From Frankiales bacterium (lineage in GTDB: Bacteria; Actinomycetota; Actinomycetes; Mycobacteriales; Geodermatophilaceae), in NCBI GenBank assembly GCA_025465155.1, contig JAODNJ010000403.1:367-64366 (forward strand): a DNA stretch of 64,000 nucleotides. The letters are read 5' to 3'. Shown here piece after piece: positions 2,746-57,872 of the stretch. The stretch's first letter is position 1. Each line of letters starts with the position of its first letter. Made by a program: the position numbers and the translations under genes. Below the pieces are notes generated by a model. It was not told where the DNA came from and did not search any database. It worked only from the letters and a program-made list of their open reading frames with translations.

Positions 2746-2752
2746 CGCCAGA

Positions 2753-30680: not shown

Positions 30681-30711
30681 CGCCAATTGCCGCGAAGCCG
30701 TCACACTCAAG

Positions 30712-31900: not shown

Positions 31901-32115
31901 CTGCACCTCCAGGTCGCTGTACCTTTCTGCTGACTCTGCAACAGGACCCCGGATGAGACAAGCCCCCCACGGGGACCTCTCTGTCACGTTGGGTAGATCC
32001 TCTATTACCGAGCCGGGCCGGGGTCCGGCAGGCCGAGGACGCAGGACGGCCGCGGACACCCTCCCGAGTGAGCTCGGGTGTCCGCGGCCGCTTCCGTACG
32101 GCACCGCTCAGACGA

Positions 32116-33336: not shown

Positions 33337-33455
33337 GCCGATTCTCCTTGTCTAGGCTGGGTTACCCACGGGTACAGGTGCAACCTAACCCCTGCCGGGG
33401 GCATGCGTACATGTCAGGGGGCCGGTGCGTGCCGACCGGTCCGGGGCGCGCATTG

Positions 33456-34511
33456 TCATGCCCTGCCCGGCGTGGTGGTGGCCGAGCCGTCCGGGCCCGG
33501 ACTCTCGTCGAGGCCCTCTCCGACACTGTCCGCCACCTTGTCGCCGGCCTTGTGCCGCCGTAGCAGGGTGGCCCAGCGCCCCCGGGGCCCGCGTTCCCGG
33601 CCGGCGACCTGGGTGCCGGCGACCTCGGTGCCGGGTTCCTCCGCGGCTTCGGCGGCCGCGAGATAGACCGGGAGCACACCCTCGCCGCGGCGGCGGTCGG
33701 GCAGCACCTCGGCCTCCTGCTCGAAACTCAGAGCGGCGGCCATGGAAGGCAGAAGCGCGGCCGCAGCGGCCGCGTAGCCCCTTGAGGAAGGGTGGTATCT
33801 ATCCGAGCTGAACATCTCCCCAGGATTCGCCGCGAACTCCCCGCCGAGCAGGTCGCCGAGGGAGACCGAGCGGGCCCCCCGCTCCACGACCGCGATGGTC
33901 TGCGCCGCCGCGAGCTGCCTGCTCGCCCGCTGCGCGAACCATCGCAGGGGCTGCATCACCGGCTTCACCGAGCCCAGGTCGGGGCAGGTCCCCACGACCA
34001 CCACGCAGCCCGCGTCGAGCAACCGTCGCACCGCACCGTCCAGATGGCGTACGGATTCGGCCGCCGGCACCCGCGCGGTGACGTCGTTAGCGCCGATCAT
34101 GATGACCGCCACGTCCGGGTCCGCCAGCAGCGCTCGGGTGGTCTGCTCGGCGAGAGTCTCGGACCGGGCACCGGACCGCGCCACATTGGTGAGCCGCACC
34201 GGCCGGGAGGAGATCGCGGACAACCCGGCGGCGAGCAGCGCGGCCGGGGTCTCATCCGGGTCCTCCACGCCGAGTCCGGCCGCCGTCGAATCCCCCATCA
34301 TCACGAAGGCGATCGGATCGCCGGGGGAGCCGGCGCCGTACACCCGGTCGGCCACCGGCGGATCTCCGTAGGGCGTGGCCTGGATGATCTTCTTGGCCAT
34401 CCGGGCCTCGGCCACCAGCAGCCCGAAGGTGACCCCGCCGAGCGCAGTGAGGCCGCCGCCTCCGTAGGCGGCGGCTCTCGCGATGCGCCGTGCGGTGAGC
34501 GCTCGAATCAC
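33456..34511 (-). CDS. SGNH/GDSL hydrolase
   Basis: GDSTAAG, IGAND, DRYHP; conserved neighbour of cbs. Confidence 0.9.
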   Translation of the reverse strand: MIRALTARRIARAAAYGGGGLTALGGVTFGLLVAEARMAKKIIQATPYGDPPVADRVYGAGSPGDPIAFVMMGDSTAAGLGVEDPDETPAALLAAGLSAISSRPVRLTNVARSGARSETLAEQTTRALLADPDVAVIMIGANDVTARVPAAESVRHLDGAVRRLLDAGCVVVVGTCPDLGSVKPVMQPLRWFAQRASRQLAAAQTIAVVERGARSVSLGDLLGGEFAANPGEMFSSDRYHPSSRGYAAAAAALLPSMAAALSFEQEAEVLPDRRRGEGVLPVYLAAAEAAEEPGTEVAGTQVAGRERGPRGRWATLLRRHKAGDKVADSVGEGLDESPGPDGSATTTPGRA

Positions 34512-34844
34512 TTATCCATCACCGGCCCCCTCATCCTGCCCGCGTCACGTCGCGCGTCCGCGTTGACAACAATCACGCCGGGTCACCGCGGCCGCTCGTC
34601 CCCCATGGTGGACTACCGTCGCGCCGTGCTGGACTTCGGGCCCACCGATGGAGGCGCCACACTCGCGCCCTGGACGCCGCGCCGCGGTTTCACGGCCATA
34701 CTTGTCCGGTGGCCTGGCTATCGTGACCGGGGACAGGGACGAAGCGAGTCCCAGGCCGCAGAAATACGATGGAAACGTATCCGGATCCGCTGGTGGCCAG
34801 TCTGTCGGCGACGCGGACAGGGCAAAGCTGACAAGGACGTCGCT

Positions 34845-36224
34845 GTGCAAGTACACGATTCGCTGATCGAGCTGATGGGCGACACCCCTCTCGTCCGGCT
34901 ACGCAAAGTGACCTCGGGGCTGGCGCCACAAGTGCTGGCCAAGGTCGAATACTTCAACCCCGGTGGCTCGGTCAAGGATCGCATCGCCGTACGCATGATC
35001 GAGGCCGCGGAGGAGTCGGGTGCGCTGAAGCCCGGCGGCACGATTGTCGAGCCCACGTCCGGAAACACCGGCGTGGGGCTGGCCATCGTGGCCCAGGAGC
35101 GGGGTTATCGCTGTGTCTTCGTCTGCCCGGACAAGGTCGGCGGCGACAAGATCAATGTGCTGAGGGCTTACGGCGCCGAGGTGGTGATCTGCCCCACGGC
35201 GGTGTCACCCGAGCACCCGGAGTCCTACTACTCGGTGTCCGACCGGCTGGCCCGGGAGATCTCCGGGGCGTGGAAGCCGGACCAGTACGTGAACCCCAAC
35301 AACCCGTTGTCGCACTACGAATCGACGGGCCCGGAGATCTGGGAACAGACCGACGGCCGCGTGACCCATTTCGTGGCGGGCATCGGCACGGGGGGCACGA
35401 TCTCCGGCACCGGCCGCTATCTCAAGGAGATCTCCGGCGGCCGGGTGAAAATCATCGGTGCCGACCCCGAGGGCTCGGTCTATTCCGGCGGCACCGGACG
35501 CCCGTACCTCGTCGAGGGCGTCGGCGAGGACATCTGGCCGCAGACCTATGACCGCGAGATCTGCGACGAGATCATGGCGGTGAGCGACCGCGACTCCTTC
35601 GTGATGACTCGCCGGCTGGCTCGCGAAGAGGCTTTGCTGGTCGGTGGATCCTGCGGGCTCGCGGTGGTGGCGGGGCTGCGGGTGGCCGCGACGGCCGCGC
35701 CCGACGATGTGATCGTGGTGCTGCTGCCGGACGGCGGCCGGGGCTATCTCTCCAAGATCTTCAACGACGACTGGATGGCGGACTACGGTTTCCTGGCGTC
35801 CTCGTCGGAAGAGGCCAAGGTCGGCGAGGTGCTGGCGCGCAAGAGCCCGGGCATGCCGGAGTTCGTGCACGTGCATCCCGACGAGACGGTCGATACCGCC
35901 ATCTCGGTGATGAGGGAGTACAACGTCTCGCAGCTTCCGGTCATGAAGGAGGAGCCGCCGGTCATGGCCGCCGAGGTGGTCGGCTCCATCGTGGAGCGTG
36001 ACCTGCTCGACGCGCTCGTCCAGGGCCGGGCGCGGCTGGAGGACCAGATCGAGGGGCACATGTCACCACCGCTGCCGATGATCGGCTCGGGCGAGCCGGT
36101 GAGCAAGGCGGTCGGTGTGCTGGAGAAGGCCGGAGCGGCGGTCGTCCTCATCGACGGCAAGCCGGCGGGTGTCATCACCCGCCAGGACCTGCTGGGCTTT
36201 CTCGCCAGCGCGGCCGGGGCCTGA
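34845..36224 (+). CDS. cbs: Cystathionine beta-synthase (with C-terminal CBS domains)
   Basis: NPGGSVKDRIA, EPTSGNTG, GTGGT, YLSKIFND, CBS pair. GTG 34845 lies within ORF 33792..36224. Confidence 0.96.
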   Translation: MQVHDSLIELMGDTPLVRLRKVTSGLAPQVLAKVEYFNPGGSVKDRIAVRMIEAAEESGALKPGGTIVEPTSGNTGVGLAIVAQERGYRCVFVCPDKVGGDKINVLRAYGAEVVICPTAVSPEHPESYYSVSDRLAREISGAWKPDQYVNPNNPLSHYESTGPEIWEQTDGRVTHFVAGIGTGGTISGTGRYLKEISGGRVKIIGADPEGSVYSGGTGRPYLVEGVGEDIWPQTYDREICDEIMAVSDRDSFVMTRRLAREEALLVGGSCGLAVVAGLRVAATAAPDDVIVVLLPDGGRGYLSKIFNDDWMADYGFLASSSEEAKVGEVLARKSPGMPEFVHVHPDETVDTAISVMREYNVSQLPVMKEEPPVMAAEVVGSIVERDLLDALVQGRARLEDQIEGHMSPPLPMIGSGEPVSKAVGVLEKAGAAVVLIDGKPAGVITRQDLLGFLASAAGA

Positions 36225-36268
36225 CGGGCCCCGCTCTGCCCGCTGCGGGGGCCCGTTAACCTCGGGGG

Positions 36269-37423
36269 ATGGACCGTTTCAGCGACGCAGCCGGTTTTGA
36301 GACCCTGGCCATCCATGCCGGTCAGGAGCCCGATCCCGCCACGGGGGCGGTCGTGCCGCCCATCTATCAGGTTTCGACGTACAAGCAGGACGGCATCGGG
36401 GGCCTGCGGGGCGGCTATGAATACAGCCGATCCGGCAATCCGACCCGCACGGCGCTGGAGGAGTGCCTCGCCGCCATCGAGGGCGGCACCCGCGGCCTGG
36501 CCTTCGCCTCCGGCCTGGCGGCCGAGGACACGCTGCTGCGAACGATCTGCAAGCCCGGAGACCACGTCCTGATCCCCGGGGACGCCTACGGCGGCACCTA
36601 CCGGCTCTTCGCCAAGGTCCTGGAGCCCTGGGGCGTGGCCTTCGACCCCGTGCCGCTCTCCGACATCGGCGCGGTTCGCGCCGCCCTACGCCCGGAGACG
36701 GTCGCGATCTGGGTGGAGACCCCCACCAACCCACTGCTGGGCGTCGCCGACATCGCCGCGCTGGCCCAGGTGGCCCATGGCGCCGGAGCCCTGCTCGTCG
36801 TGGACAACACTTTCGCCTCGCCCTATCTCCAGCAGCCGCTCGCACTGGGTGCGGATGTGGTCGTGCACTCGACCACCAAATACCTGGGGGGCCACTCCGA
36901 CGTGGTCGGCGGAGCGCTCGTGGTGGCCGACGGCTCCCTCGGTGAACAGCTGACCTTCCACCAGAACGCGATGGGGGCCATCGCCGGGCCGTTCGACGCC
37001 TGGCTCACGCTGCGCGGCATCAAGACCCTGGGCGTACGGATGGAGCGGCACTCCGCCAACGCCGCCGCCATCGTGGACATGCTCGTGCGGCACCCACGCG
37101 TGGCCGAGGTCCGTTATCCCGGTCTGCCGGGGCACCCGGGGTACGACGTCGCCGCGAAGCAGATGCGCGCCTTCGGCGGCATGGTGTCGTTCCGCCTGGC
37201 CGAAGGTGAGGAGGCGGCCGTGCGAGTGTGCGAGAAGACCGAGCTGTTCACCCTCGGCGAGTCGCTCGGAGGCGTCGAATCCCTCATCGAGCACCCAGGC
37301 CGGATGACCCACGCGTCAGCGGCCGGCTCGCCGCTGGAGGTGCCGCCCGACCTGGTACGGCTGTCGGTCGGCATCGAGGATCTCGACGACCTGATGCGCG
37401 ACCTCGAACGAGCGCTCGCCTGA
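36269..37423 (+). CDS. metB: Cystathionine gamma-synthase/gamma-lyase (PLP)
   Basis: YSRSGNPT, ETPTNP, VDNTF, HSTTKYLGGHSD, ESLGGVESL. Confidence 0.93.
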   Translation: MDRFSDAAGFETLAIHAGQEPDPATGAVVPPIYQVSTYKQDGIGGLRGGYEYSRSGNPTRTALEECLAAIEGGTRGLAFASGLAAEDTLLRTICKPGDHVLIPGDAYGGTYRLFAKVLEPWGVAFDPVPLSDIGAVRAALRPETVAIWVETPTNPLLGVADIAALAQVAHGAGALLVVDNTFASPYLQQPLALGADVVVHSTTKYLGGHSDVVGGALVVADGSLGEQLTFHQNAMGAIAGPFDAWLTLRGIKTLGVRMERHSANAAAIVDMLVRHPRVAEVRYPGLPGHPGYDVAAKQMRAFGGMVSFRLAEGEEAAVRVCEKTELFTLGESLGGVESLIEHPGRMTHASAAGSPLEVPPDLVRLSVGIEDLDDLMRDLERALA

Positions 37424-37527
37424 GAGACTCCCCCCTCTTGCCGGCCACCACGGTGAGCGATCTCCATGCGCGGCCCTGACCTGGGATCTATGATGACGCC
37501 AGATTCCACCACAAGAGGGAGCATTGG

Positions 37528-38499
37528 GTGCGCAAGGCATTGGTGCTCAGTGCGGCGGTCGCCGCCGCCTACGCGACGTCGGCGCTCACGCCGGCCTACA
37601 GCGAGACGTTCCCCCGGCGCGAGCCCGTCGTGCCCGCGGCTCCGGCCGCCACCGCCGGGCTGGGGGGCCAGGTGGACACGGCCGAGGCCTTCATCGTCAC
37701 GCTGCCCCGCCTGCAGCAGAAGACGTATTCCTACGGCGCTCAGCGGGAACAGCAGATGGACGCCTACTGGCGGGCCCCCCTGAAGGGGACGCAGCCGGCG
37801 ATCGTGCTGTTGCACGGCGGCTACTGGCTGCAGGGGGACAAGTCCTCCTGGCGCGACGTCGCGCGGCGGCTGACCGGCCGTGGATATGCGGTCTTCGCGC
37901 CGGACTACCGGCTCAGCGGGGTCGCGCCATGGCCGGCGCAGCGCGACGACGCCGAGGCCGCACTCGCCTTCGTCAAGCGGCACGCCGGCCACTTCAAGGT
38001 GGACACGTCCCGGATCGTGGTGCTCGGGTCCTCGGCCGGCGGGCAGCTGGCGACGATGCTCGGCACCTATGGCTCGGGGGAGCAGCGCGTCCGGGGCGTG
38101 GTCGCCCTGTCACCGGTGAACTCGCCCTACCTCGGTTATGTCGACGGGGGCGCGGCCACGGCGTCCAGCGCGTCGGCGAAACTCCGCAGGGCCGTGAAGC
38201 AGTTGATCGGCTGCACGCCGGAGGCCGGGGACCTGACCTGCTGGCACCGGATGGAGGACGTCGCCCCGGCCACCTACGCGAGCGCGGACGACGCGCCGGT
38301 GCTGATCATGCACTCGGCCGACGAGTTCGTGCCCGCCGCGCACAGCACCGGGTTGGTCTCGACCCTGAGGGGCCTGGGTGTGCAGGCGACCATGCACGTC
38401 GTGCCTGGCGCGGTCCATGGCGCAGGGATCCTCGGCAATGCCACGGCGTGGCGGACGGTCGTCTCCTGGATCGACTCGGTGGCGAAGACCAAGGCATAG
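37528..38499 (+). CDS. Secreted alpha/beta hydrolase (esterase, BD-FAE-like)
   Basis: Signal peptide, HGGYW, GSSAGG nucleophile, DEFV, HG. Confidence 0.85.
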   Translation: MRKALVLSAAVAAAYATSALTPAYSETFPRREPVVPAAPAATAGLGGQVDTAEAFIVTLPRLQQKTYSYGAQREQQMDAYWRAPLKGTQPAIVLLHGGYWLQGDKSSWRDVARRLTGRGYAVFAPDYRLSGVAPWPAQRDDAEAALAFVKRHAGHFKVDTSRIVVLGSSAGGQLATMLGTYGSGEQRVRGVVALSPVNSPYLGYVDGGAATASSASAKLRRAVKQLIGCTPEAGDLTCWHRMEDVAPATYASADDAPVLIMHSADEFVPAAHSTGLVSTLRGLGVQATMHVVPGAVHGAGILGNATAWRTVVSWIDSVAKTKA

Positions 38500-38508
38500 T
38501 CGGTCTGG

Positions 38509-39111
38509 CTACCGGCCGTACCAGACCATCAGGACCAGGATCACCAGCCAGAGCAGTGCGACGACGCCGGAGATCGCGGCGATCCGGCCCTGCTCCACCT
38601 GTGCGACCGGCTCGGTGGAGACGGCCCCGGTGTCGCGCCGGATGTCGGCGCCGGCTCCGGGGACCGAGGTCTCCCGCGCGGCGGCGGCCGCGGCCGGGCC
38701 CTCGTCCACGGGTGCCCCCGCGGCCGGCTGCTCGCCGGTGCCGGTGGCCGGTTCGCCCGCCGTGTCCGGCGCGGCCACGTGCCCGGCGGCGGCGAGTTCG
38801 AGGGCGTGGACCGCCTTGCGCTGGTCGCGCTCCACGATGAACAGCAGTACGAGGGCGACGATGAAGAGCGTCATCGAGGCCGACAGCCAAACCTGGGCGA
38901 ACTTGCCCTTCGCCAGGAGCAGCCCGAACAGGAAGACGCCCAGGGTCAGCACACCGTAGATACGCGTCGCCCGGTTCAGGTAGCGAAGCACCGTGACCTC
39001 CCGCCTGCGGATATAGCGCGGGGAGGCCATGGTGGCCGCGGTGAGGGGGCCCAGGGTGAAGATCGCAAAGCCGAGGTGCAGGAGCAGCAGCAGGCGATCG
39101 GTGCTCGACAT
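38509..39111 (-). CDS. DUF2269-like membrane protein with an Ala/Pro-rich insertion
   Basis: LLHLGFAIFTLGP, QVWLSAS, GRIAAISG, ILVLMVW; 4 TMs. Confidence 0.7.
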   Translation of the reverse strand: MSSTDRLLLLLHLGFAIFTLGPLTAATMASPRYIRRREVTVLRYLNRATRIYGVLTLGVFLFGLLLAKGKFAQVWLSASMTLFIVALVLLFIVERDQRKAVHALELAAAGHVAAPDTAGEPATGTGEQPAAGAPVDEGPAAAAAARETSVPGAGADIRRDTGAVSTEPVAQVEQGRIAAISGVVALLWLVILVLMVWYGR

Positions 39112-39216
39112 GACGCAGACCCTAATCGCACGCAGCGTCATCCTCTACGCCGCCACGCGCACCAGCCCACTCAAACGCGGAGAAAGCACCGCGTCACCGG
39201 TCGGAGCGGCACGGCG

Positions 39217-41169
39217 TCAACTCGCGCGGCGGCGGGCCCGCAGGTAGTCGCTGACGAGATACTCCCCGAGCCGGTCCGGCGTGGGGGCGAACACCCGCCC
39301 GCCGTTGCGGCGCGCTACCTCCTCCACGAAGGAGACCAGCCGGCGGTCGTCGGCCAGCATGAACACGTTCAGCGTCGCGCCGCGCCGCGTCATCCTGTCG
39401 ACCTCGGCCATGGTGAGCACCAGGGTCTCCGGCGACGGCGGGTAGTCGAACACCGAATGCCCGTCGCCGCGCAGATGCGCGGTCGGCTCGCCGTCGGTGA
39501 CCACCAGCACGATGGGCTCGAAGTCGGGGTGCTGGTCGAGATGACGCCCCGCGATCATGAGGGCGTGGTGGAGGTTCGTGCCCTGCACCATGTCCCAGTC
39601 CAGACCGGCCATCTCGGTCGAGTGCAGGACCCGGGCGTAGTTCGAGAAGCCGATGATCTGGATGGAGTCCTGCGGATACTTGGTGGTCACCAGGGAGTGC
39701 AGGGCCAGAGCGGTCTGCTTGGCGGTTCCCCACGTCCCGCGCAGCACCATCGAGTAGGACAGGTCCACGAGCAGGCAGACCGCGGCCGCCGTACGGCTTT
39801 CGGTCTCGAGCACCTCGAAGTCGTCCGCCCGCAGGCGCACCGGCCGGTCGGCACCGGACCGGCGTACGGCGTTGCCGAGGGTGCGGACGACGTCGATGGG
39901 CTGCTCGTCACCGAACCGCCACTCCCGGCTGGCACCGGTGAGCTCTCCGGCCTGGCCGGCGCTGTCCTGGTCGTGGTCTCCACGCCGCCCGGCCTCGAGC
40001 TGGTCGAACACCCGCCGGAGCGCCGTCTCGCCGAGGCGGCGCACGGCTTTCGGGGTGAGCTCGAGCGAACCACCCCGGCGCCGCAGGTATCCCTGCCGCT
40101 CCAGCTCGGCCTCGATGCGCCGCAGCCCCGCCAGGTCGTCGACCGCCTGGCGGCCGAGCGCGCGCCGGACCGCCTCCTCGTCGATGTCGTCCATCCGGGC
40201 GCCGGGGTAGTCCTGGCGCAGTGCCGCCTCGAGGTCGGCCAGATCGGCGAGCTCCTCCAGCGCGGTGGTCGCGTCACCCATCCCCATGGGGTCGTCGCCG
40301 GTCATCCGCTCGGATCCGCCCCAGTCGAGGTCGGGCCGCCGGGCGCGGAGGGAGTCCGACAGCCGCGACATCTCCAGGGCCAGGCCGGCGTCCTCGAGCG
40401 CCTCCGCCATGAGGCCGGCCAGCTCCGAACGCTGCTCGGGGGTGAGCGAGGACAGAAGCCGGTTCATCGCGGCCGCCCGCCGGGCGAGCGAGTCGACCAG
40501 CTCCTCGAGCGTGCCGGGAGAGTCCGGGAACAGGTCTCCGTACTCCCCCATGAAACGCTCGAAGTCCTCTTGGGTGTGCTCCCCGCGGGCGTCCTTCTCG
40601 AGCATCGCGTTCAGCCCGGCCATCATGTCCTTGACCCGCTGCATCATGGCCGGGTCGGACTGCTCGAGGGCCTGCTTCATGCCACGGAACTGCGAGTCGA
40701 GCACATCACGGCGCAGGAGGTTCTTGAGCTCCTCGAAGGTCGCCCGCGCCTGCGGCGACCGCCAGTCGTAGTCCCTGAGCCGGGTGATCGCCTGCGCGGT
40801 GTCGTTCGGCAGTGTGTCGAGCTCGGCCTCCCGGATCCTGGCGTCATCGCCCGGATCCGGGAACAGCGCCGCGCGCTCCTGCCCGATCGCGGTGTCGAGG
40901 AGTGCCCGGGCCTGCTCCAGGGTGCCGTCGAGCCTGCCCTGTCCGCGCAGGTCCCGCCGGCGGTCGCGGACCCGGCGGAGCAGGTCCTCCAGGCCCCGGC
41001 CCCGTGGCGACCCGGGAAGGCCGCGGCGGAGCAGATCCCGCAGGGCCTCCGCCGGGCTCGTTCCCTCGAGCACCGAGTCGCCCATCGAGTCCAGCGCCGC
41101 CCGTACGTCGTAGGGCGGGTCGAGCGGATCGGGCCCGTCGTGGTAGGCCCCGTACCGGTAGCGCGTCAT
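39217..41169 (-). CDS. vWA-domain protein (partner of the chelatase-like ATPase, Rv0959-like)
   Basis: MIDAS DLSYS, GTNLHHAL, VTDGEPTAH; long helical N-terminus. Confidence 0.9.
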   Translation of the reverse strand: MTRYRYGAYHDGPDPLDPPYDVRAALDSMGDSVLEGTSPAEALRDLLRRGLPGSPRGRGLEDLLRRVRDRRRDLRGQGRLDGTLEQARALLDTAIGQERAALFPDPGDDARIREAELDTLPNDTAQAITRLRDYDWRSPQARATFEELKNLLRRDVLDSQFRGMKQALEQSDPAMMQRVKDMMAGLNAMLEKDARGEHTQEDFERFMGEYGDLFPDSPGTLEELVDSLARRAAAMNRLLSSLTPEQRSELAGLMAEALEDAGLALEMSRLSDSLRARRPDLDWGGSERMTGDDPMGMGDATTALEELADLADLEAALRQDYPGARMDDIDEEAVRRALGRQAVDDLAGLRRIEAELERQGYLRRRGGSLELTPKAVRRLGETALRRVFDQLEAGRRGDHDQDSAGQAGELTGASREWRFGDEQPIDVVRTLGNAVRRSGADRPVRLRADDFEVLETESRTAAAVCLLVDLSYSMVLRGTWGTAKQTALALHSLVTTKYPQDSIQIIGFSNYARVLHSTEMAGLDWDMVQGTNLHHALMIAGRHLDQHPDFEPIVLVVTDGEPTAHLRGDGHSVFDYPPSPETLVLTMAEVDRMTRRGATLNVFMLADDRRLVSFVEEVARRNGGRVFAPTPDRLGEYLVSDYLRARRRAS

Positions 41170-41185
41170 GCTGGTCGCCTCACCG

Positions 41186-42616
41186 TCAGGTTCTGTACGT
41201 CGTGGTGGCGTCCGGCCCGGCAGAGGAGACGTCCTTGGACAGCCGGCGGGTGAGGAAGAGCCCCTCGAGGGCGAACTCGAGGGCCGCGGCCGCCTGCCCG
41301 GGTGACTCTCCGGACATTCCCAGCCGCTCCATGATCTTTGCCAGGCCGGGGACCTGGCCGATGCGCTTCAGCAGTTCGGTGGCCGAGATGAGCTCCCCCG
41401 AGTCCACGCTGTCCCCGGCGTCGAATTTGTCCAGCAGCCCGGACAGGTCGGCAGGTCCGAGTGTGCGCCGGTAGGTCTCGGCCGTGGCGCGCCGCAGCAG
41501 GTGCTCGAGCACCTCCTGCTCGCGGCCCTCCTCGCTCACCTCGAACTCGACCTTGCCGAGCAGGGTCGGCACCACGGCCGGCAGGTCGCAGACCCGGGCC
41601 ACGGGCTGCTGCTCTCCGGTGATGGCCGCTCGCCGGACCGCACCGGCGGCCACGGTCTCGGCGCCCGCGATGGCGAACCGGGCGGACACTCCGGATCGGG
41701 AGTCGACGGCCGTCGAGTCCCGGACCAGCCGGGTGAACCGGCCGATCACCTCGATGAGATGGTCGGGCATCTCCGCGCCCAGCGTGGACAGCTCGGCCTC
41801 CTGGCGGACGAGGTCGAGTTCGTCCTGGAGCTCCAGGGGATAGTGGGTGCGGATCTCGGCCCCGAAGCGGTCCTTGAGCGGAGTGATGATCCGGCCGCGG
41901 TTGGTGTAGTCCTCGGGGTTCGCGGTGGAGACGAGCAGGACGTCCAGCGGCAGGCGCAGGGTGTACCCGCGGACCTGGATGTCGCGCTCCTCCATCACGT
42001 TGAGCAGCGCGACCTGGATGCGCTCGGCGAGGTCGGGCAGCTCGTTGATCGCGACGATCCCGCGGTGCGCGCGCGGGACGAGTCCGAAGTGGATCGTTTC
42101 CGGGTCGCCCAGGCTGCGGCCTTCGGCCACCTTGACCGGGTCGACGTCGCCGATCAGGTCACCGACGGACGTGTCGGGCGTCGCCAGCTTCTCGGTGTAG
42201 CGGGCGTCGCGGTGCAGCCAGGCGACGGGCAGGTTGTCGCCGAGTTCGGCGGCGCGGCGGATCGACACCGGGGTGATCGGCGCGAGCGGGTGCTCGGCGA
42301 GCTCGGCACCCTCGATGACCGGCGTCCACTCGTCGAGCAGGCCGGCGAGGCTGCGCAGCAGGCGGGTCTTGCCCTGGCCGCGTTCGCCGAGCAGGACGAC
42401 GTCGTGTCCGGCGAGCAGTGCGCGTTCCAGCTGGGGCAGCACTGTCCGCGAGAACCCGACGATGCCGGGCCAGGGATCCACCCCGGCGCGCAGCGCGGCC
42501 AGCAGGTTGTCGTGGATCTCGGTTTTCACACCGCGCGGGACATGCCCGGCGGCACGGAGCTCCCCGGCGGTCCGGGGCAGGTTTGCGGGCGCGGAAGCAG
42601 GTGAAGACAGAGTCAC
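41186..42616 (-). CDS. Mg-chelatase-subunit-like AAA+ ATPase (Rv0958-like), apparently chimeric
   Basis: GERGQGKT, NELPDL, NPEDYTNRGRIITPLKDRFG. GTG 42616 lies within ORF 41186..43405. Confidence 0.92.
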   Translation of the reverse strand: MTLSSPASAPANLPRTAGELRAAGHVPRGVKTEIHDNLLAALRAGVDPWPGIVGFSRTVLPQLERALLAGHDVVLLGERGQGKTRLLRSLAGLLDEWTPVIEGAELAEHPLAPITPVSIRRAAELGDNLPVAWLHRDARYTEKLATPDTSVGDLIGDVDPVKVAEGRSLGDPETIHFGLVPRAHRGIVAINELPDLAERIQVALLNVMEERDIQVRGYTLRLPLDVLLVSTANPEDYTNRGRIITPLKDRFGAEIRTHYPLELQDELDLVRQEAELSTLGAEMPDHLIEVIGRFTRLVRDSTAVDSRSGVSARFAIAGAETVAAGAVRRAAITGEQQPVARVCDLPAVVPTLLGKVEFEVSEEGREQEVLEHLLRRATAETYRRTLGPADLSGLLDKFDAGDSVDSGELISATELLKRIGQVPGLAKIMERLGMSGESPGQAAAALEFALEGLFLTRRLSKDVSSAGPDATTTYRT

Positions 42617-42715
42617 TCCACCAACGCTACTTACCTGTTCGGCGAACGTCGACGTGGAGCTGCTCAAGGACGTCCGTTCCCCGGACGCGGACCGACCAGA
42701 GTAAAATCGACGGTC

Positions 42716-43510
42716 GTGTGCTGTCCGAGTGCGACTTTCGCCGTCTGGTCCTCCGCGTGGCTGAACGGTGCCGCGGCGTCCGACGATGTGCTGGATTCCC
42801 TGCAGTGCTGGGGACAGGCCCACGACGTGGTCGCCGCCGACCCGCGCGCGGCCGAAACCTTCGACCTGCCGCTGGCGTTCAACCGGCCCGCGACCCCGGT
42901 CCAGCTGCTGCTCGCGCTGCGCTCGCTGGCGGTCACCGATGTCCGGCTGGTGCTGCCGGCGCCGGGCGACGTCCGCGGTCTGGGTGGCGGCGGTCCGTTC
43001 ACTGCCGCCGCGCTGAGGGCTGGTGAAGCCGTCGTCGTCAGCGAGATCGGCTACGGACTGGTGCCGGAGTCGATCGCCGAGGGCCTGATGCGGTGGACCG
43101 TGTTCGCCCTGCCGAACCCCGCGCACGTCGAGCACGTCGGACTCGCCGACGCCGAGCACGGCATGACAGACGCCATCCGATCGAGCGCCGGAGCACTGCA
43201 GACGCTCAACGTGGCGCGCGAACGCCCCGGCGTCCGGGCCGAGTTGTCCGCACGCCTGCGATCCGCGCCCGAACCGGCATGGCCCGCCGGGACCCCCGGC
43301 CGCGCGCTCCGGGTGCTGCAGCGCGCCGAGGAGGTCGACGCGATCCTCGCACTGGCCCAGACCGACGAACCCGGCGGCGCGCTTTCGGCGTCCGCGGCCG
43401 TCCAACGCGCCGACGCGCTACGCCCGCTGTCCGACGCCATCCGCACCGCCCGCGCCGCCGCCGTCAACGAGACCGTACGAGTCTTCGCCGAACAACCCGA
43501 CCGGCTGTAG
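42716..43510 (+). CDS. Conserved hypothetical protein (Rv1486c-like, convergent on ferrochelatase)
   Basis: MCCPS...W..AWL.G.AA.DDVLD, LP.PGDVRGL, AL.AGEAV recalled from the mycobacterial protein; same position. Confidence 0.7.
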   Translation: MCCPSATFAVWSSAWLNGAAASDDVLDSLQCWGQAHDVVAADPRAAETFDLPLAFNRPATPVQLLLALRSLAVTDVRLVLPAPGDVRGLGGGGPFTAAALRAGEAVVVSEIGYGLVPESIAEGLMRWTVFALPNPAHVEHVGLADAEHGMTDAIRSSAGALQTLNVARERPGVRAELSARLRSAPEPAWPAGTPGRALRVLQRAEEVDAILALAQTDEPGGALSASAAVQRADALRPLSDAIRTARAAAVNETVRVFAEQPDRL

Positions 43511-43570
43511 GACTCGTGCGTGTTCCGGCCGGTTAGAAGCGGGTTAGAAGCGGCCGGAACGCTCACGAGT
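43511..43570. repeat. Palindromic REP-like element, family B copy 1
   Basis: actcgtg..gttccggcc-(ggttagaagcg)x2-gccggaacgctcacgagt, between convergent stops. Confidence 0.8.
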
Positions 43571-43572
43571 TT

Positions 43573-44610
43573 CTACGGGCGTTTCGCGGGTTCGCAGCAG
43601 GAGATGGCGCAGGGGGCGCCGTTGAGGGTGCAGCCCGCGGCCGGGAAGCCGGAAAGCTTGCGGGGCGAAGCGTCTTCGAGGTGCTCGCGGATCAGTTCGA
43701 CAACAAGTTCGGCGAAGCGCGGATCGGTGCCTGGGGTGGCCACCCTGGCGAACGCCATCCCCAGCTCGGCCGCCTTCTCCGCGGCCTCGTTGTCGAGGTC
43801 CCAGATCACCTCGAGATGGTCGGAAACGAACCCGACCGGGCAGACGACGACCGAGGTGACGCCCTGGGCGTGCAGAGCCTCGATATGGTCGACGATGTCC
43901 GGCTCCAGCCACGGAACCTGGGGCGGGCCGGAGCGCGACTGCCAGACGAGATCGTAGGACTCGATGCCGACCTCGGCGGCGACGAGACGGGCCGCTTCGG
44001 CAATCTGGCGCGAGTAGAGGTACCCGCCTTCGGCCGGCGGACCGGCCGCCTTGTCCGCGCTGGACGGGACCGAGTGCGCGCAGAACACCGTGCGCGTGTC
44101 CGCCCGGTCGCCGAGTTCGGCGTGGGCCGTCCGCAGTGCGTCGGCGAACGCCCCGATGAACAGCGGGTGGTCGAAGAACTGGCGCAGCTTGACCAACTCC
44201 GGCGCGTTTTCGCCGAGCGACGCCTGGATGCGCCGGATGTCTTCGTCGTACTGGCGGCACGCCGAATAGCCGCCGTAAGCGCTGGTCGGGAAGACGAGCG
44301 CCTTCGCGACGCCGTCGGCGGTCATGGTGGCCGCGGTGTCCTCGGCCATCGGCTGCCAGTTGCGGTTGCCGAAGTAGACCGGCAGGTCGATGCCCTCGAC
44401 CGCGAGCCGCTTCTCCACCGCGGCGATGGCATCGCGATTGAGGCCGTTGATCGGCGAGACCCCGCCGAAGTGGTGGTAGTGCTCGGCGACTTCGAGCAGC
44501 CGCTCCCGGGGCACCCCCCGACCCCGCGTCACGTTCTCGAGGAACGGCATGACCTCGTCAGGGCCTTCGGGTCCACCGAAGGAAAGCCAGAGCAGCGCGT
44601 CGTAACCCAC
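43573..44610 (-). CDS. hemH: Ferrochelatase (coproporphyrin ferrochelatase type in actinobacteria)
   Basis: [30 protein letters not shown]...[17 protein letters not shown]. Confidence 0.96.
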
Positions 44611-44655
44611 TCCCCCATCTTGCCGCTGTGGCGGCCCCCACGCTGACCCGGGACC

Positions 44656-44694
44656 GACTCGGGGACCTTCCGCGTGCGAAAGGTCCCCCGAGTC
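44656..44694. repeat. Palindromic REP-like element, family A copy 1
   Basis: gactcggggaccttc-cgcgtgcg-aaaggtcccccgagtc. Confidence 0.7.
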
Positions 44695-44709
44695 GAGCTT
44701 GAACGTGGA

Positions 44710-45477
44710 TCAGATGCCGAGCGCGTGCACTCCACCGTCGACCATGATCATCGAGCCGGTCGTCGACGGCAGCCAGTCCGACAGCACGGCGCAGACGGTC
44801 TTCGCGACCGGGATCGGGTCAGAGCTGTCCCAGCCGAGCGGCGCGCGATCGTTCCAGCCGTCCTCCAGGTCGGCGAAGCCGGGGATGGACTTCGCGGCCA
44901 TCGTCTTCATCGGGCCCGCGCTGACCAGGTTGACCCGGATGCCCTGTGGGCCGAGGTCGCGCGCGAGGTAGCGGTTGACCGACTCCAGTGCCGCCTTCGC
45001 GACGCCCATCCAGTTGTAGGCGGGCCAGGCGACACGCGCGTCGAAGTCCATGCCGACGATCGACGCGCCGCGGCTCAGCAGCGGCAGCGTCGCCACGGCG
45101 AGCGACTTGAAGGAGAACGCCGACACGTCGACGGCAACGGAGACATCGGCCGACGGCGCGTCGAGGAACGGCGCGCCCAGGCAGGTCTGCGGCGCGAAGC
45201 CGACGGAGTGCAGCACACCGTCGAGGCCGTCGACGTGCTCGCGAACGCGGTCTGCCAGCGAAGCGAGCTGCTCCTCGTTGGTCACGTCGAGCTCGAGCAC
45301 CGGCGCGGGCTCGGGGAGCCGCTTCGCGATGCGCTCGACGAGCGACATCCTGCCGAAGCCGGTCAGGATGACCGTCGCACCCTGCTCCTGAGCGAGCTTC
45401 GCGGCGTGGAATGCCAGCGAGGCGTCGGTGATGATGCCGGTGACGAGCAGGCGCTTACCTTCGAGAATTCCGGGCAC
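44710..45477 (-). CDS. inhA: Enoyl-ACP reductase (InhA/FabI)
   Basis: [35 protein letters not shown]; GTG start after GGAG. Confidence 0.96.
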
Positions 45478-45524
45478 TCTGGTCTCCAAGTTCGTTCGGG
45501 AACGTTTCGGGGTGGAACGCGGGC

Positions 45525-46271
<747 letters not shown>

Positions 46272-46456
46272 TTATCGGCTCGGCCCGCCCCCGCCGAATC
46301 CGCGCCACCGCTACCCCCAAGTAACCACGACCAGGTCAGATACGGTTCCCGCGGCACGCCGCCCCCACCGCTGGTGACCACGGTGAGCCGAGCCACAGCG
46401 GCTGCGTCGATGCGGCGTTCACCACATCTTTCACGTCGCGGGTGTCGGGGGTCGGG

Positions 46457-46514
46457 ACTCGCGAGCGTTCCGACCGGTTCTAGGCTGGTTCTAGGCGGCG
46501 GGAACACTCACGAC
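46457..46514. repeat. Palindromic REP-like element, family B copy 2 (opposite orientation to copy 1)
   Basis: actcgcgagcgttccgacc-ggttctaggct-ggttctaggc-ggcgggaacactcacga aligns with the reverse complement of 43511-43570. Confidence 0.8.
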
Positions 46515-46561
46515 CGGGCGCCACGACGGACCTCGACACCACCCCGTGGTGGAATGTGCGG

Positions 46562-47032
46562 GTGTTCCGCATCCTGTTCTACCACCCGGAGATCCCCGGC
46601 AATACCGGCAACGCGATCCGCCTCGCCGCGAACACCGGGTGCGAGCTGCACCTCGTCGAGCCGCTCGGCTTCAACTTCGAGGACAAGCAGCTCAAGCGGG
46701 CCGGGCTCGACTACCACGACCTCGCGCGGGTGACCGTCCACGCGGACCTCGACGCGGCGTGGAAGGTACTCCTCCCGGCGACCGTGTACGCCTTCACCGC
46801 GGCCGCGACCCGGCAGTACACCGACGCCGTCTACGCGCCCGGCGACGTGCTGATGTACGGGCCGGAGTCGGTCGGCCTGCCCCTCGAAGTCCAGCAGGCC
46901 GCGGAGGTCACCGACCGGCTGCGCCTGCCGATGATCCCCGCGTCCCGTTCGCTGAACCTCGCCAACACCGTCGCGATCAGCGTGTACGAGGCATGGCGCC
47001 AGCTCGACTTCTCAGGGCAGTCGGCTTCTTAG
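46562..47032 (+). CDS. trmL: tRNA (cytidine(34)-2'-O)-methyltransferase
   Basis: PEIPGNTGN, LKRAGLDY, GPESVGL, RSLNLAN. Start 46556 or 46562. Confidence 0.93.
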   Translation: MFRILFYHPEIPGNTGNAIRLAANTGCELHLVEPLGFNFEDKQLKRAGLDYHDLARVTVHADLDAAWKVLLPATVYAFTAAATRQYTDAVYAPGDVLMYGPESVGLPLEVQQAAEVTDRLRLPMIPASRSLNLANTVAISVYEAWRQLDFSGQSAS

Positions 47033-47054
47033 GGCAGTCGGCTTCTTAGGGCAG
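47014..47054 (+). repeat. 17-bp tandem duplication at the convergent trmL/vWA stops
   Basis: (agggcagtcggcttctt)x2 followed by agggcag. Confidence 0.9.
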
Positions 47055-48026
47055 GCGCTGACCGATCACCAGTGAGCTGCCCGCGGCCGCCAGCAGCAGC
47101 AGGGTGCCCAGGATGATCCACGACCTGCTCGCGTCGGTGTCCTTGAGCTCGTAGCCGATCTGCTCGCCGAGCGTCGCGTAGACGGCCTTCAGTTGCTCGG
47201 CCGTCACCGCCTTGTGGAAGTCCCCGCCCGAAAGGCGCGCGATCTCCTGCAACGACGCGTCGTCGACGGCGACTTCCTGCTGCTGGCCCTCGATCATCAC
47301 CGCGCCGTGCGAGGTGCCGAACGAAATGGTCGAGATGGGCACGCCCTGCTGCTTCGCGGCCTGCGCGGCGGTGTACGAACCACGCGGATCGGACTCGTCG
47401 CGCGGCACGGTCTGCTTGCCGTCGCTCATCAACACGATCCGGGCCGGCGGCGGTCCGTCGACCCCGCTGACCACCGACGAGAACGTGTCGATCTGCTGCA
47501 GCGCGGAGAAAATCCCCTCACCGGTGGCTGTCGACTGCGCGAGCTTCAGGTTGTCGATCGCCTTGACCACGCCGGTGCGCTCGGTCGTCGGCGCGACGAG
47601 CACGGTCGCCGTGCCGGCGAACGAGATCAGGCCGAGGTTGACGCCCGGGGTGAGGCCCTGCGCGAACTGCGTCGCCGCTTCCTGTGCCGCCTTCAGCCGT
47701 GTCGGAGCGACGTCGGTTGCCTCCATCGACAACGAAACGTCGATCACCAGCATCACCGTGGCACGGTTGCGTGGCACCTTCTGCTCCGCGGTCGGACCGG
47801 CCAGCGACACCGTCAGAACGATGAGCGAGACGATCATCAGCGCCGCCGGCACATGCCGGATCCAGCCCTGACGCTTCGGCGCGACCTTGTCCAGCAGCTC
47901 CAGATTGGCGAACCGCATGGTGCGCCGGCGCCGCGACCGCTGCACGAGGACGTACCCCGCGACGAGCGCGGCCACCGCCAGCAGCAGCAGGAACCACCAC
48001 GGCGCCGCGAAACCCGACAGGCTCAC
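47046..48026 (-). CDS. Membrane vWA protein (Rv1481/BatA-like)
   Basis: BatA-type N-terminus, DVSLSM, TATGEG, MSDG, C-terminal TM. Confidence 0.92.
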   Translation of the reverse strand: MSLSGFAAPWWFLLLLAVAALVAGYVLVQRSRRRRTMRFANLELLDKVAPKRQGWIRHVPAALMIVSLIVLTVSLAGPTAEQKVPRNRATVMLVIDVSLSMEATDVAPTRLKAAQEAATQFAQGLTPGVNLGLISFAGTATVLVAPTTERTGVVKAIDNLKLAQSTATGEGIFSALQQIDTFSSVVSGVDGPPPARIVLMSDGKQTVPRDESDPRGSYTAAQAAKQQGVPISTISFGTSHGAVMIEGQQQEVAVDDASLQEIARLSGGDFHKAVTAEQLKAVYATLGEQIGYELKDTDASRSWIILGTLLLLAAAGSSLVIGQRLP

Positions 48027-48970
48027 GCCACTCCCCCCGACCAGCGGCGCTTGCGCGCGACGACGAACCGCACCATGTCCGCGATCCAGTCCGAATCCGT
48101 CCGCAGCACCAGGTGCCCGGCTCCGGCACGGCGCAGCGCGGCGGCCACTTCCTGCCGGTGCGCGTGCGCGGCCGCGCCGAACTCCTTACGCAGCAACGCC
48201 GAAGCGTGCACTTCGCGCTGCTTCCCGGTTTCCGGGTCGGCCAGTACGACCGTGCCGACGTCGGGCAGGTCCACATCGCGCGGGTCGACGATCTCGATCC
48301 CGATCAGTTCGTGGCGCGACGACAACGCGCGCAGCGGACCCTGCCACGTCGTGTCGCCCAGGAAGTCCGAGATGACCACGGCCAGGCCGCGGCGCCTCGG
48401 CGGACGACGCAACTGCTCGACCGCCGCGGCGAGGTCGCCTCGGGTGCCTTCGGGCGCTCTCGGCGTCTCCGCGAGCTTCCGCACCATGCCCCTGGCGTGC
48501 GGTAACCCGCCCCGGGCCGGTACGCGCACCGCGTCGGAACCGGTGGAGATCAACGCGCCGAGCCGGTTGCCACCGCCGCCGGTCAGATGCGCGATCGCGG
48601 CGACCGCGCACACGACGAGGTCGCGCTTCTCGCACAGCGCGGTGCCGAAGTCCAGGCTGGCCGACAGGTCGGCGACCACCCAGGTCTCCAGTTCGCGGTC
48701 CGCGACGGTCTCGCGGATGTGCGGGGTCGTGGTGCGCGCGGTGACCGCCCAGTCCATCCGGCGCACGTCGTCGCCGGGCTGGTACGGGCGTGCTTCACCC
48801 GGCTCCGAGCCCGGCCCCGGCACCAGGCCGAGGTGGTTGCCCTGCAGGAGTCCGTCCAAGCGTCGGCGGACTTCGAGCTCCAGCGTGCGCAGCCCGGCCT
48901 CGAGCCGCTCGCCGCGCAACACCGGCGGCGCCCAGGACGGGCGCCCCTGATCGTCCTTCACGGTCGCCAC
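48023..48970 (-). CDS. DUF58 family protein (Rv1480-like)
   Basis: RPYQPGDDVRRMDW, DLSASLDFG, VISDFL. Confidence 0.92.
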   Translation of the reverse strand: MATVKDDQGRPSWAPPVLRGERLEAGLRTLELEVRRRLDGLLQGNHLGLVPGPGSEPGEARPYQPGDDVRRMDWAVTARTTTPHIRETVADRELETWVVADLSASLDFGTALCEKRDLVVCAVAAIAHLTGGGGNRLGALISTGSDAVRVPARGGLPHARGMVRKLAETPRAPEGTRGDLAAAVEQLRRPPRRRGLAVVISDFLGDTTWQGPLRALSSRHELIGIEIVDPRDVDLPDVGTVVLADPETGKQREVHASALLRKEFGAAAHAHRQEVAAALRRAGAGHLVLRTDSDWIADMVRFVVARKRRWSGGVA

Positions 48971-50037
48971 TACCGGCCCGGCACACCCGCCGGCACCGGC
49001 TGCCCCGAACCCCCCTGCGGGCGGGCGGAGACCTGGGGCAGCGGGACGGTCTGCAGGACGCGGGTGATGATGTGGTCGATCGGCACGCCGTCGGCGAGCG
49101 CGTCGTAGGACAGCACGAGCCGGTGGCGCAGCACGTCCGGGACGACGTCGACGACGTCCTGCGGCAGCACGTAGTCGCGGCCGCGGATCAGGGCCAGCGC
49201 GCGGGACGCGGCGATGATGCCGAGGCTCGCGCGCGGCGAGGCACCGTACGACACCCAGCCCGCGACGTCGGCCAGGCCGTGCTCGTTCGGGGTACGGGTC
49301 GTCAGCACGACACGGACGACGTAGTCGACGAGCGCGTGGTGCACGAACACCTGCGAGGCGACACCCTGCAGCCGCACCAGCTCCTGCGGGCTCAACACCT
49401 CGTGCGGCTCCGGCGGAGTGACACCCATCCGGTAGACGATTTCGCGTTCTTCCTCGGCCGTGGGGTACTCGACCAGGATCTTGAACAGGAACCTGTCGCG
49501 CTGCGCCTCGGGAAGCGGGTAGACGCCCTCGTTCTCGATCGGGTTCTGCGTGGCGAGGACCAGGAACGGGTCGGGCATCGGGAAGGTCTTGCCGCCGATG
49601 GTCACGTGCCGCTCGGCCATCACCTCGAGCATCGCCGACTGCACCTTCGCCGGCGCGCGGTTGATCTCGTCGGCGAGGACGAAGTTCGCCACGACCGGGC
49701 CGAGCTCGACGTCGAACCGCTCGGCGCCCTGGCGGTAGATCCGGGTGCCGAGGATGTCGGCGGGCACCAGGTCCGGGGTGAACTGCAGGCGGGAGAACGT
49801 GCCGCCGACCACCCTGGCGAAGGTTTCGACCGCGAGGGTCTTCGCGACCCCGGGGACTCCTTCGAGCAGCATGTGGCCCTTGGCCAGCAGCCCGACGAGC
49901 ATGCGCTCGACCAGCCTGTCCTGGCCGACGATCACCCGCTTGACCTCGAACACGGTCCGCTCCAGCAACTGGGCGTCCCGCGCTGGCGTTCCGGCTTGCT
50001 GGCCGCCTGCGCCCTCGGCGTAGCCGGGCTCGGTCAC
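48970..50037 (-). CDS. moxR: MoxR-family AAA+ ATPase
   Basis: EGVPGVAKT, QFTPDLVPAD, DEINRAPAKVQSA, TQNPIE, DRF; GAGGAGG RBS. Confidence 0.95.
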   Translation of the reverse strand: MTEPGYAEGAGGQQAGTPARDAQLLERTVFEVKRVIVGQDRLVERMLVGLLAKGHMLLEGVPGVAKTLAVETFARVVGGTFSRLQFTPDLVPADILGTRIYRQGAERFDVELGPVVANFVLADEINRAPAKVQSAMLEVMAERHVTIGGKTFPMPDPFLVLATQNPIENEGVYPLPEAQRDRFLFKILVEYPTAEEEREIVYRMGVTPPEPHEVLSPQELVRLQGVASQVFVHHALVDYVVRVVLTTRTPNEHGLADVAGWVSYGASPRASLGIIAASRALALIRGRDYVLPQDVVDVVPDVLRHRLVLSYDALADGVPIDHIITRVLQTVPLPQVSARPQGGSGQPVPAGVPGR

Positions 50038-50115
50038 GGTGCCTCCTCGCTGATGATCACTGGTGCTCGCGCACGGTACTGGAACGCGTCTGTACGCGAC
50101 GGTAGCCAACCGGAC

Positions 50116-50691
50116 TCACGGTATGACGGGGGTAAAGCGGTCTAGATCCTCCGGCGTGTCGATGTCGGCGCTCTCCCCCTGCTCGGCGAGCACCTCGACG
50201 ATCTCCAGCCCGCCGAGCATCCGGCGCAGCGACGCGCCTGCCACCCGTTCGGGCAGCGCCCGCCGCAGTGAACCGGCGCGCCAGGCGCCGATGAGCCACT
50301 GCCGGTGGCCCGTGTCGTCGACGAGCACCGCGCCATCCGCCCGGCCCACCGCCGCGACCACCTTGTCCACAGTGGACCGGCGAACTCCGGCGAGGTCCGC
50401 GGCGAGGACGACGACAAGGCCCTCTGCCCCGGTCTCCAAGGCGTCGAGACCGGCTGCGAGCGCGGCCACCGGTCCGCTGCCCGGCTCAGCCTCCCGCGTC
50501 CACACCACCCCGGGGAAACCGGCGCGCTCCGGCCCGACCACCACGATCGGGCTCACCTCGCCCAGCGCTTCGATCGCCCTCGCCAGCAGAGACTTCCCAC
50601 CGACCACCAGAACGGACTTGTCCACACCGGAAAGCCGGCGGGCCGCTCCGCCCGCCACGATGATTCCGCCGGCGACTTCCGTGCCGGCCAT
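50116..50691 (-). CDS. mobA: Molybdenum cofactor guanylyltransferase-like NTP transferase
   Basis: IVAGGAARRLSGVDK, GPVAAL, LAADL, DIDTPEDL. Confidence 0.8.
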   Translation of the reverse strand: MAGTEVAGGIIVAGGAARRLSGVDKSVLVVGGKSLLARAIEALGEVSPIVVVGPERAGFPGVVWTREAEPGSGPVAALAAGLDALETGAEGLVVVLAADLAGVRRSTVDKVVAAVGRADGAVLVDDTGHRQWLIGAWRAGSLRRALPERVAGASLRRMLGGLEIVEVLAEQGESADIDTPEDLDRFTPVIP

Positions 50692-51203
50692 TACTCCCCA
50701 ACCTGCCCGCCGGCGAGCTCGGCGACGATGTCCAAGTGCCCGACGTGCCGCGCGTACTCCTGCACCAGGTGGAAGAGCACGCGCTCAAGAGGCGGCGGCT
50801 CGCCGCCGTTCCAGCGCGGGCCTGGCTTGCCGATCGCGGCGAGGTCGGCGGCGTCGACGACGACGGCCCTGGTATGCGCCGCCCGGGAGCGCAGCGCCGC
50901 GCTCAGTTCGTCGAGCGTCTCCTCGGGAGCGACGTACCAGCGGTCGTCACGGCGGTCCCCCCACGGCTCGGCGACCTCGCGGCCCTCGAACCCCCATTCG
51001 ATCCACCGCAGCTCGACGAAGGTCAGGTGCTTGAGTAGCTCCAACGGCGTCCATCCCGACGGAAGGCCGCTCTGACGCAGTGCGCCGGCCGGAAGGCTCT
51101 CGACCTTGTCCAGGACCTGCGAACGGAAGTAGTCCAAGTAACCGAGGAAGACTTCGCCCCTCGACGAAGCAGGGACGGTCGGTTCCGGGAAATCCACGCT
51201 CAT
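50691..51203 (-). CDS. DinB/DUF664 family protein
   Basis: LKHLTFVE.RW, LFHLVQEYARHVGHLDI. Confidence 0.88.
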   Translation of the reverse strand: MSVDFPEPTVPASSRGEVFLGYLDYFRSQVLDKVESLPAGALRQSGLPSGWTPLELLKHLTFVELRWIEWGFEGREVAEPWGDRRDDRWYVAPEETLDELSAALRSRAAHTRAVVVDAADLAAIGKPGPRWNGGEPPPLERVLFHLVQEYARHVGHLDIVAELAGGQVGE

Positions 51204-51308
51204 CGGGCGAGTATGCCCGGCCTTCCGCGCTGATGCGGATACCACGGCTAGGCGCCCACAGTCGGACTGCACAATCATGCACAACGTCACCACCACCGCG
51301 GGAAGGCC

Positions 51309-52388: not shown

Positions 52389-52430
52389 CGGCCGCGCGAC
52401 ATCCGACACCTGTTCAGGGCCTGGGTGCGC

Positions 52431-53075: not shown

Positions 53076-53080
53076 CGCAG

Positions 53081-53245: not shown

Positions 53246-53273
53246 GCAAGTGCCCAGGAGAAGCCAGGCGGCG

Positions 53274-54647: not shown

Positions 54648-54665
54648 GGACAGCCCCGCGCAGTC

Positions 54666-55043: not shown

Positions 55044-57857
<2,814 letters not shown>

Positions 57858-57872
57858 GGGTTTTCAGCTGGA

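Follow-up and report, generated by a model that had tools for sequence, protein, structure and literature searches.

A taxon switch inside an Rv0958-like ATPase gene on a soil metagenome contig very probably reflects an inter-genome assembly chimera

Misassembly at stretches shared between genomes is a class of problem discussed in the metagenome-assembly literature. Inter-genome chimeric contigs in short-read metagenome assemblies change taxon and synteny abruptly at a highly conserved stretch, show a coverage step, are joined seamlessly, and have sides that occur alone in other samples. Natural mosaic genes, such as the penicillin-binding-protein genes of Streptococcus and Neisseria, likewise show a sharp change of relatives within an intact frame and a conserved breakpoint, but they join close relatives, have the recipient genome on both sides, are evenly covered, and are found in isolates. 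The locus described here, in a window of 64,000 nt (the whole stretch of DNA analyzed), resembles chimeric contigs in each of these respects and differs from them in nothing essential; what stands out is that its join lies inside a coding gene and keeps the frame, so that the encoded protein would look plausible but be fictitious, and that public catalogues contain several chimeras from this core of the gene. From natural mosaic genes it differs in that its partners come from two orders, neither flank returns to the other genome, depth differs 5-fold between the sides, and no isolate carries it. The contig is very probably a chimera of two genomes that arose in the assembly of a soil metagenome, and not a biological feature. 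Its features are collected in Table 1.

Table 1. Features of the window and of one related mosaic gene (coordinates are those of the window unless stated otherwise)
Feature	Coordinates	Strand	Remarks
Left-parent segment	1-41891		Actinomadura-like (Thermomonosporaceae, Streptosporangiales), from best DNA matches and synteny with Actinomadura alba
Left-parent genes, outer			mfd, mazG (MazG), PBP1 (class A PBP), eno, ftsB, ppx, ndh
Left-parent genes, inner			tRNA, thiolase, cbs, metB-like gene, VWA partner, C-terminal half of ATPase
tRNA	30607-30681	+	75 nt; ARAGORN call SeC (tca)
Rv0959-like VWA partner gene	39217-41169	-	650 aa; left parent; downstream of ATPase gene
Mosaic (very probably chimeric) Rv0958-like ChlI/MoxR-type AAA+ ATPase ORF	41186-42616	-	476 aa (P0002)
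Crossover zone	41892-41920	-	29 nt, codons NPEDYTNRGR; both parents identical to window over at least 21 nt, probably all 29
Right-parent segment	41921-64000		Pseudonocardiaceae near Amycolatopsis/Qaidamihabitans, from DNA matches and synteny with Pseudonocardiales only
Right-parent genes			ATPase N-terminal half, Rv1486c-position ORF, hemH, inhA, fabG1, SpoU, BatA-VWA, DUF58, MoxR
Right-parent genes, further out			RipA-like gene, acn, Dyp peroxidase, imelysin
First right-parent genes beside the join	42716-46229	+ / -	Rv1486c-position ORF (+); ferrochelatase, InhA-type enoyl reductase, FabG1-type ketoreductase (-); from Pfam
Mosaic gene P0025	137-1555 of locus L081		JGI contig

The open reading frame in question runs from a GTG start at 42616 to a stop codon ending at 41186 and is intact and in frame, as the initial annotation had described it. 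Its Pfam matches (Mg_chelatase, AAA_5, and Sigma54_activat) identify a ChlI/MoxR-type AAA+ ATPase, and a protein search returned more than 8000 homologues. The product of the adjoining VWA partner gene is 92% identical to its counterpart in Actinomadura alba and 50-53% identical to those of Pseudonocardiales, Mycobacteriales, and Propionibacteriales. Because of the Pfam families of the ATPase and of the partner homologue in locus L081 (Rv0959_3rd and Mb0984_helical), we regard the two genes as a pair of the Rv0958/Rv0959 type of Mycobacterium tuberculosis. Both halves of the window ORF are orthologous pieces of this ATPase, and the partner gene follows it as in every relative examined; unlike the M. 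tuberculosis gene, however, the window's ATPase copy combines pieces from the genes of two organisms. An AAA+ ATPase domain with an adjacent VWA gene thus describes each half taken separately, but not the composite as a natural protein. Each parent genome presumably carries a normal copy of the ATPase gene.

Homologous loci, extended by 10 kb in either direction, were taken from 80 GTDB species genomes, and the two halves of the protein (N-half, residues 1 to 232; C-half, residues 262 to 476) were compared separately. The N-half was 84-92% identical to Pseudonocardiales proteins (91.9% for Amycolatopsis sacchari), 87-90% identical to those of Kribbella, and 81-86% identical to those of Mycobacteriales, versus 71-76% for 15 Actinomadura/Spirillospora genomes; its closest relatives, in the Pseudonocardiaceae (Amycolatopsis and Qaidamihabitans), reached 92-93%. 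The C-half was 91.6% identical to that of Actinomadura alba and 78-86% identical to those of other Actinomadura/Spirillospora genomes, versus 48-56% for Pseudonocardiales, with Amycolatopsis at ~50%, 47-50% for Kribbella, and 50-58% for Mycobacteriales. The assignment of the N-terminal half to a Pseudonocardiales type and of the C-terminal half to a Streptosporangiales type, made at first from sequence motifs, is borne out by these values. At sites that differ between the two nearest relatives, the window agreed with Pseudonocardiaceae at 46 and with Actinomadura at 7 before residue 231, and with Actinomadura at 85 and Pseudonocardiaceae at 2 after residue 263 (Fisher p = 7e-27). Neighbor-joining trees of the two half-genes, each with 200 bootstraps, conflicted in 200/200 replicates: the N-half was placed on the Pseudonocardiales/Mycobacteriales/Propionibacteriales side, apart from all Streptosporangiales, in 200/200, and the nearest clade to the C-half was Actinomadura in 200/200. 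The mosaic structure of the ATPase is real as an observation and far beyond chance.

A single organism without any junction might still show discordant halves if its domains evolved at different rates or if paralogues had undergone gene conversion, and the N-half is, in general, more conserved between orders than the C-half. Differences in rate, however, cannot place the N-half nearer to another order (92%) than to the genus of the C-half (75%). The Actinomadura genomes show no such inversion of N- and C-half identity, none of the 79 reference-genome loci was discordant between halves, and flanking gene content, synteny, and depth change together at one point. We consider this explanation vanishingly unlikely, and both domain-rate heterogeneity and paralogue conversion are ruled out by the half identities, the flanking genes, and the trees.

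Seven genes of the left flank are confined to Streptosporangiales neighborhoods. Those for a GDSL lipase, cystathionine beta-synthase, a Cys/Met PLP enzyme, an alpha/beta hydrolase, a membrane protein, and the VWA partner are neighbors of the ATPase gene in loci of this order but never in those of Pseudonocardiales or Mycobacteriales, and the thiolase has matches in other Streptosporangiales loci only. A single Nocardioides MAG locus gave weaker matches to the GDSL lipase (49%) and cbs (66%) products. On the right, eight genes (the Rv1486c-position ORF and those for ferrochelatase, the InhA-type and FabG1-type reductases, the SpoU methylase, BatA-VWA, DUF58, and MoxR) lie near the ATPase gene only in Pseudonocardiales loci, with 74-91% identity. 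The first of these beside the join (Table 1) are 74-88% identical to ATPase neighbors in Amycolatopsis and were near the ATPase gene in none of 15 Actinomadura loci. Consistent with this, 500-nt DNA chunks from 33.5 to 42.0 kb had their best match in, and were collinear with, Actinomadura alba, and those from 42.0 to 50.0 kb had best and syntenic matches in Amycolatopsis, Qaidamihabitans, and other Pseudonocardiaceae. The sequence did not switch back to the other taxon's backbone within 41 kb to the left or 22 kb to the right, a scope set by the 64.65-kb contig, which ends close to the ends of the window. A tetranucleotide classifier (Actinomadura versus Pseudonocardiales loci) was clear for 32-64 kb and ambiguous for 1-32 kb, and its result is weak evidence only, because it was trained on homologous neighborhoods. 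The right-parent assignment of 56-64 kb comes solely from this tetranucleotide signature; positions 1-10000 were assigned to the left parent from the same set of public runs (X1, X6, X7, X8, and X21) as positions 32000-41800, and the region from 10 to 32 kb between them would then be left-parent sequence as well.

The mfd-eno-tRNA-cbs block that the initial annotation had noted on the left is present, and the genes it had named on the right, namely an NlpC/P60 (RipA-like) gene, the Rv1486c-position ORF, and an aconitase gene with the N terminus then noted, were also found. Two of its details were not confirmed: no DUF4287 was detected among 40 proteins scanned, and where dense REP-like repeats had been described, 42-64 kb contained no REP-like repeat family, the short matches there being no more than chance would give, apart from one hairpin. 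Directly 3' of the aconitase stop codon (57873-57921) is a terminator-like, perfect inverted repeat of 24 nt with a 1-nt loop. The region from 56000 to 64000, which encodes a DUF5753 protein, a phosphoesterase, a Dyp-type peroxidase, and an imelysin (EfeB/EfeO-like), has a G+C content of 0.65-0.67 compared to ~0.71 elsewhere, with a tetranucleotide signature that is still Pseudonocardiales-like. On the left segment, the Cys/Met PLP-enzyme frame as called (36224-37423, plus strand; 262 aa) covers only positions 120-380 of a Pfam model with 381 positions; the real start is probably further upstream, unless the gene is truncated.

The left segment also carries an unusual tRNA. Although called as a selenocysteine tRNA, it forms a class-I cloverleaf in which the acceptor stem has 7 bp and the variable loop is short, and the call was rejected. 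Its anticodon loop is CCUCAAA (C33, anticodon UCA). Full-length homologues, 85-89% identical, were found in four Streptosporangiaceae, in Acidothermus, and in other actinomycete MAG loci, with a 41-nt partial match in locus L034; in these homologues the anticodon is UAA, but the long arm that a leucine tRNA would have is missing. The tRNA thus belongs to an unusual family in which the anticodon differs between relatives.

The switch point was located by aligning the genes of six Actinomadura and seven Pseudonocardiaceae genomes for diagnostic bases. In this nucleotide alignment the last Pseudonocardiaceae-diagnostic base is at ~41962 and the first Actinomadura-diagnostic base at ~41819, and the interval between them is nearly invariant in all 13 aligned genomes; outside the core, the parents differ at ~25-30% of nucleotides. 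The segment at 41834-41920 encodes NPEDYTNRGRIITPLKDRFGAEIRTHYPL, in agreement with the initial annotation, which had placed the switch inside this invariant segment; the crossover zone in Table 1 falls within it. In public run X1, a left-parent contig of 682 nt (9.8x) is identical to the window from 41790 up to its end at 41912, and in run X2 a right-parent contig of 105 nt (25.7x) matches it exactly over 41892-41996. Both parents are therefore identical to the window over at least 41892-41912. The shared stretch is at least 21 nt long, and it probably reaches 41920 (29 nt) if a further contig of run X1, 102 nt long, belongs to the left parent. The join thus lies inside a stretch that is identical in both sources. 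The 102-nt contig (18.4x) aligns to 41930-42001 with three differences, agrees with the window over 41900-41920, and then diverges. Read in gene sense over 41900-41929, it has GCG TCG GCC AAC CCC GAG GAC TAC ACC AAC, which encodes ASANPEDYTN, the Actinomadura type, versus S/A-T-A-N in the window and in Pseudonocardiaceae. This sequence marks the contig, which has a left-like depth, as a candidate continuation of the gene in the left parent.

We then turn to occurrence in public runs, where presence was read from a 31-mer index and Logan contigs were matched to the window; the depths given are contig word depths, not per-base read depths. The index found the window in soil metagenomes only. The left side (32000-41800 and 1-10000) was present in X1 (0.86 and 0.99 of words), X6, X7, X8, and X21, and the right side (42000-51800) was present in X1 (0.98), X2 (0.88), X3, X4, X5, and more than a dozen others; the index showed the right side to be absent from X6, X7, and X21. 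Left without right was thus seen in X6, X7, and X21 and right without left in X2 to X5, and the two sides occurred together in X1 only, where contigs match the window with 0-1 differences. In X1, exact left-side contigs had depths of 13.9, 18.1, 14.3, and 9.8x, and exact right-side contigs had depths of 74.4, 73.3, and 73.2x (from 42030 onward and over 52000-55223), a step of ~5-fold between 9.8-18x left of 41912 and 73-74x right of 42030. X2 had no left side and a right side at 21-25x with 12 differences in 3.2 kb; X6 had a left side at 9.5-12.7x and no right side; in X21 the left side was at ~3-4x and the right side was essentially absent, with short fragments only. From the depths across these four runs, we conclude that the sides represent two populations with independently varying abundance. 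Instead of a single taxon with even coverage, which the initial annotation had named as evidence against a chimera, two orders and a step in coverage were found.

No contig joining left-specific to right-specific sequence was found in X1, X2, X4, X6, or X21; in these runs, left and right contigs stop inside the core. Core words have depths of 1000-8000x, so the core must be common to very many community members. Given 31-nt words, a shared stretch of ~29 nt, and heavy branching, a genuine recombinant, too, would yield Logan contigs interrupted at the core. The X1 contigs contain no exact copy of window positions 41913-42029 (117 nt), which is present in X2, and at position 41966 every X1 contig aligned there has the other base. 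The gap in X1 may be due to graph fragmentation in a highly branched region, or the window sequence at this place may come from another run of the same sample. Searches of a 5.8-billion-protein collection with the half-proteins found no near-identical parents; the matches were mostly partial, the best being 89% for the N-half and 86% for the C-half. An exact scan of JGI metagenomes with a right-parent-specific 48-mer beside the junction, for a parent gene crossing it, gave no match; the protein searches revealed no relatives of the same species in JGI data, and the right parent's own C-half was not recovered.

The ATPase gene is mosaic elsewhere as well. A survey of the 120 best full-length homologues of the more than 8000 revealed six further mosaic ATPases (P0021, P0025, P0074, P0077, P0081, and P0097), each with an N-terminal part of Pseudonocardiales, Kribbella, or Nocardioides type and a C-terminal part of Streptosporangiaceae type. 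All six are on JGI or ENA metagenome contigs of 1.6-4.8 kb, and among the best 120 no protein from a named isolate was mosaic. Four of the six breakpoints lie at the same core as in the window, and the other two lie in other conserved stretches. In the case of P0025, positions 251-750 of locus L081 are 98-100% identical in nucleotides to a genome record of Amycolatopsis sp. cmx-4-37 (91% over 1-250), the title of which bears UNVERIFIED_CONTAM, and the sequence after that is 81-87% Streptosporangiaceae-like. Assembly chimerism probably accounts for these six catalogue entries too. In another homologue, P0001 (683 aa, on an 8505-nt ENA metagenome contig), part of the ATPase is duplicated internally in tandem, with residues 1-297 running into a second copy beginning RLLRSLA; it is most likely another misassembly. 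Together, the six mosaics and P0001 indicate that conserved cores of the ATPase gene are a repeated misjoin site in metagenome assemblies.

A real homologous recombination between orders would require that at least 22 kb of Pseudonocardiaceae chromosome entered an Actinomadura-like organism, or the reverse, through a crossover in the core, and that the recombinant was present in the sample at ~10-18x beside an abundant pure Pseudonocardiaceae strain. The depths in X1 also fit such a rare recombinant with an abundant right parent, an intact, in-frame ATPase gene is compatible with it, and a breakpoint in a conserved stretch is also expected for true homologous recombination. Against this, each block is made up of core housekeeping genes arranged as is native to its taxon, over 41 kb and 22 kb without return, so that the supposed import is not enclosed on both sides by the recipient genome. 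In addition, each side occurs without the other in independent runs, with X1 the only run to hold both; X1 itself contains, at left-like depth, the candidate Actinomadura-type continuation; none of the five runs inspected yielded a spanning contig; and similar mosaics are confined to short metagenome contigs, with none among the 79 reference loci. Homologous recombination normally tolerates far less than 25-30% nucleotide divergence, the distance between these parents outside the core, and the partners belong to different orders. The real inter-order crossover that the initial annotation had kept as an alternative gained no positive support, and we judge it extremely unlikely. It is equally hard to credit the corresponding organism, a low-abundance soil actinomycete in which at least 22 kb of Pseudonocardiaceae core is fused to an Actinomadura-like core over a 29-nt stretch; were the junction real, the other metagenome mosaics of this ATPase would mark a natural recombination hot spot and not repeated misassembly.

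These results favor the assembly chimera, which was also the reading first preferred: the taxon switch, the depth step, the separate occurrence of the sides, and a join in an invariant segment all support it. Each side has a different nearest taxon and keeps that taxon's native gene order, and the coverage step at the join goes together with the presence of each side alone in independent samples. Very probably, one sample contained two actinomycetes, a rarer Actinomadura-like left parent and a ~5-fold commoner Pseudonocardiaceae right parent, both carrying the conserved Rv0958-like ATPase gene and identical over at least 21 nt, and probably all 29 nt, of the crossover zone. Hundreds of other community members have the core words as well, with a local word depth above 1000x, and the core would then act as a repeat in the assembly graph, which the assembler would have entered on the right-parent path and left on the left-parent path. 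The product would be an intact, in-frame, but fictitious gene, encoding a 476-aa protein of no organism; the chimeric frame stays open because the join falls between homologous codons. The role of the shared stretch as a graph repeat and the wrong exit branch are what we infer from the sequences and depths, as are the assembler and the k-mer size of the join. A chimera could also have been made after assembly, by scaffolding, binning, or contig merging instead of in the graph, and the lack of an exact copy of 41913-42029 among the X1 contigs would fit this; the join, however, is seamless, without Ns, and lies exactly in a shared exact stretch, the hallmark of joins made in a graph or by overlap, which makes a later origin very unlikely. 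Whether the assembly chimera arose in the graph or afterward does not matter to the biological verdict.

The finding has no biological import, in that it reveals neither a recombinant organism nor a new gene, and its value lies in data quality. The contig should be split at ~41.9 kb before it is used for binning, taxonomy, or synteny analysis. Public metagenome protein catalogues hold at least six other mosaics and one internally duplicated protein of this ATPase family, and their recurrence indicates that short invariant cores of widespread genes can seed in-frame chimeras. Neither gene calling nor domain checks catch such chimeras, which could be misread as horizontal transfer.
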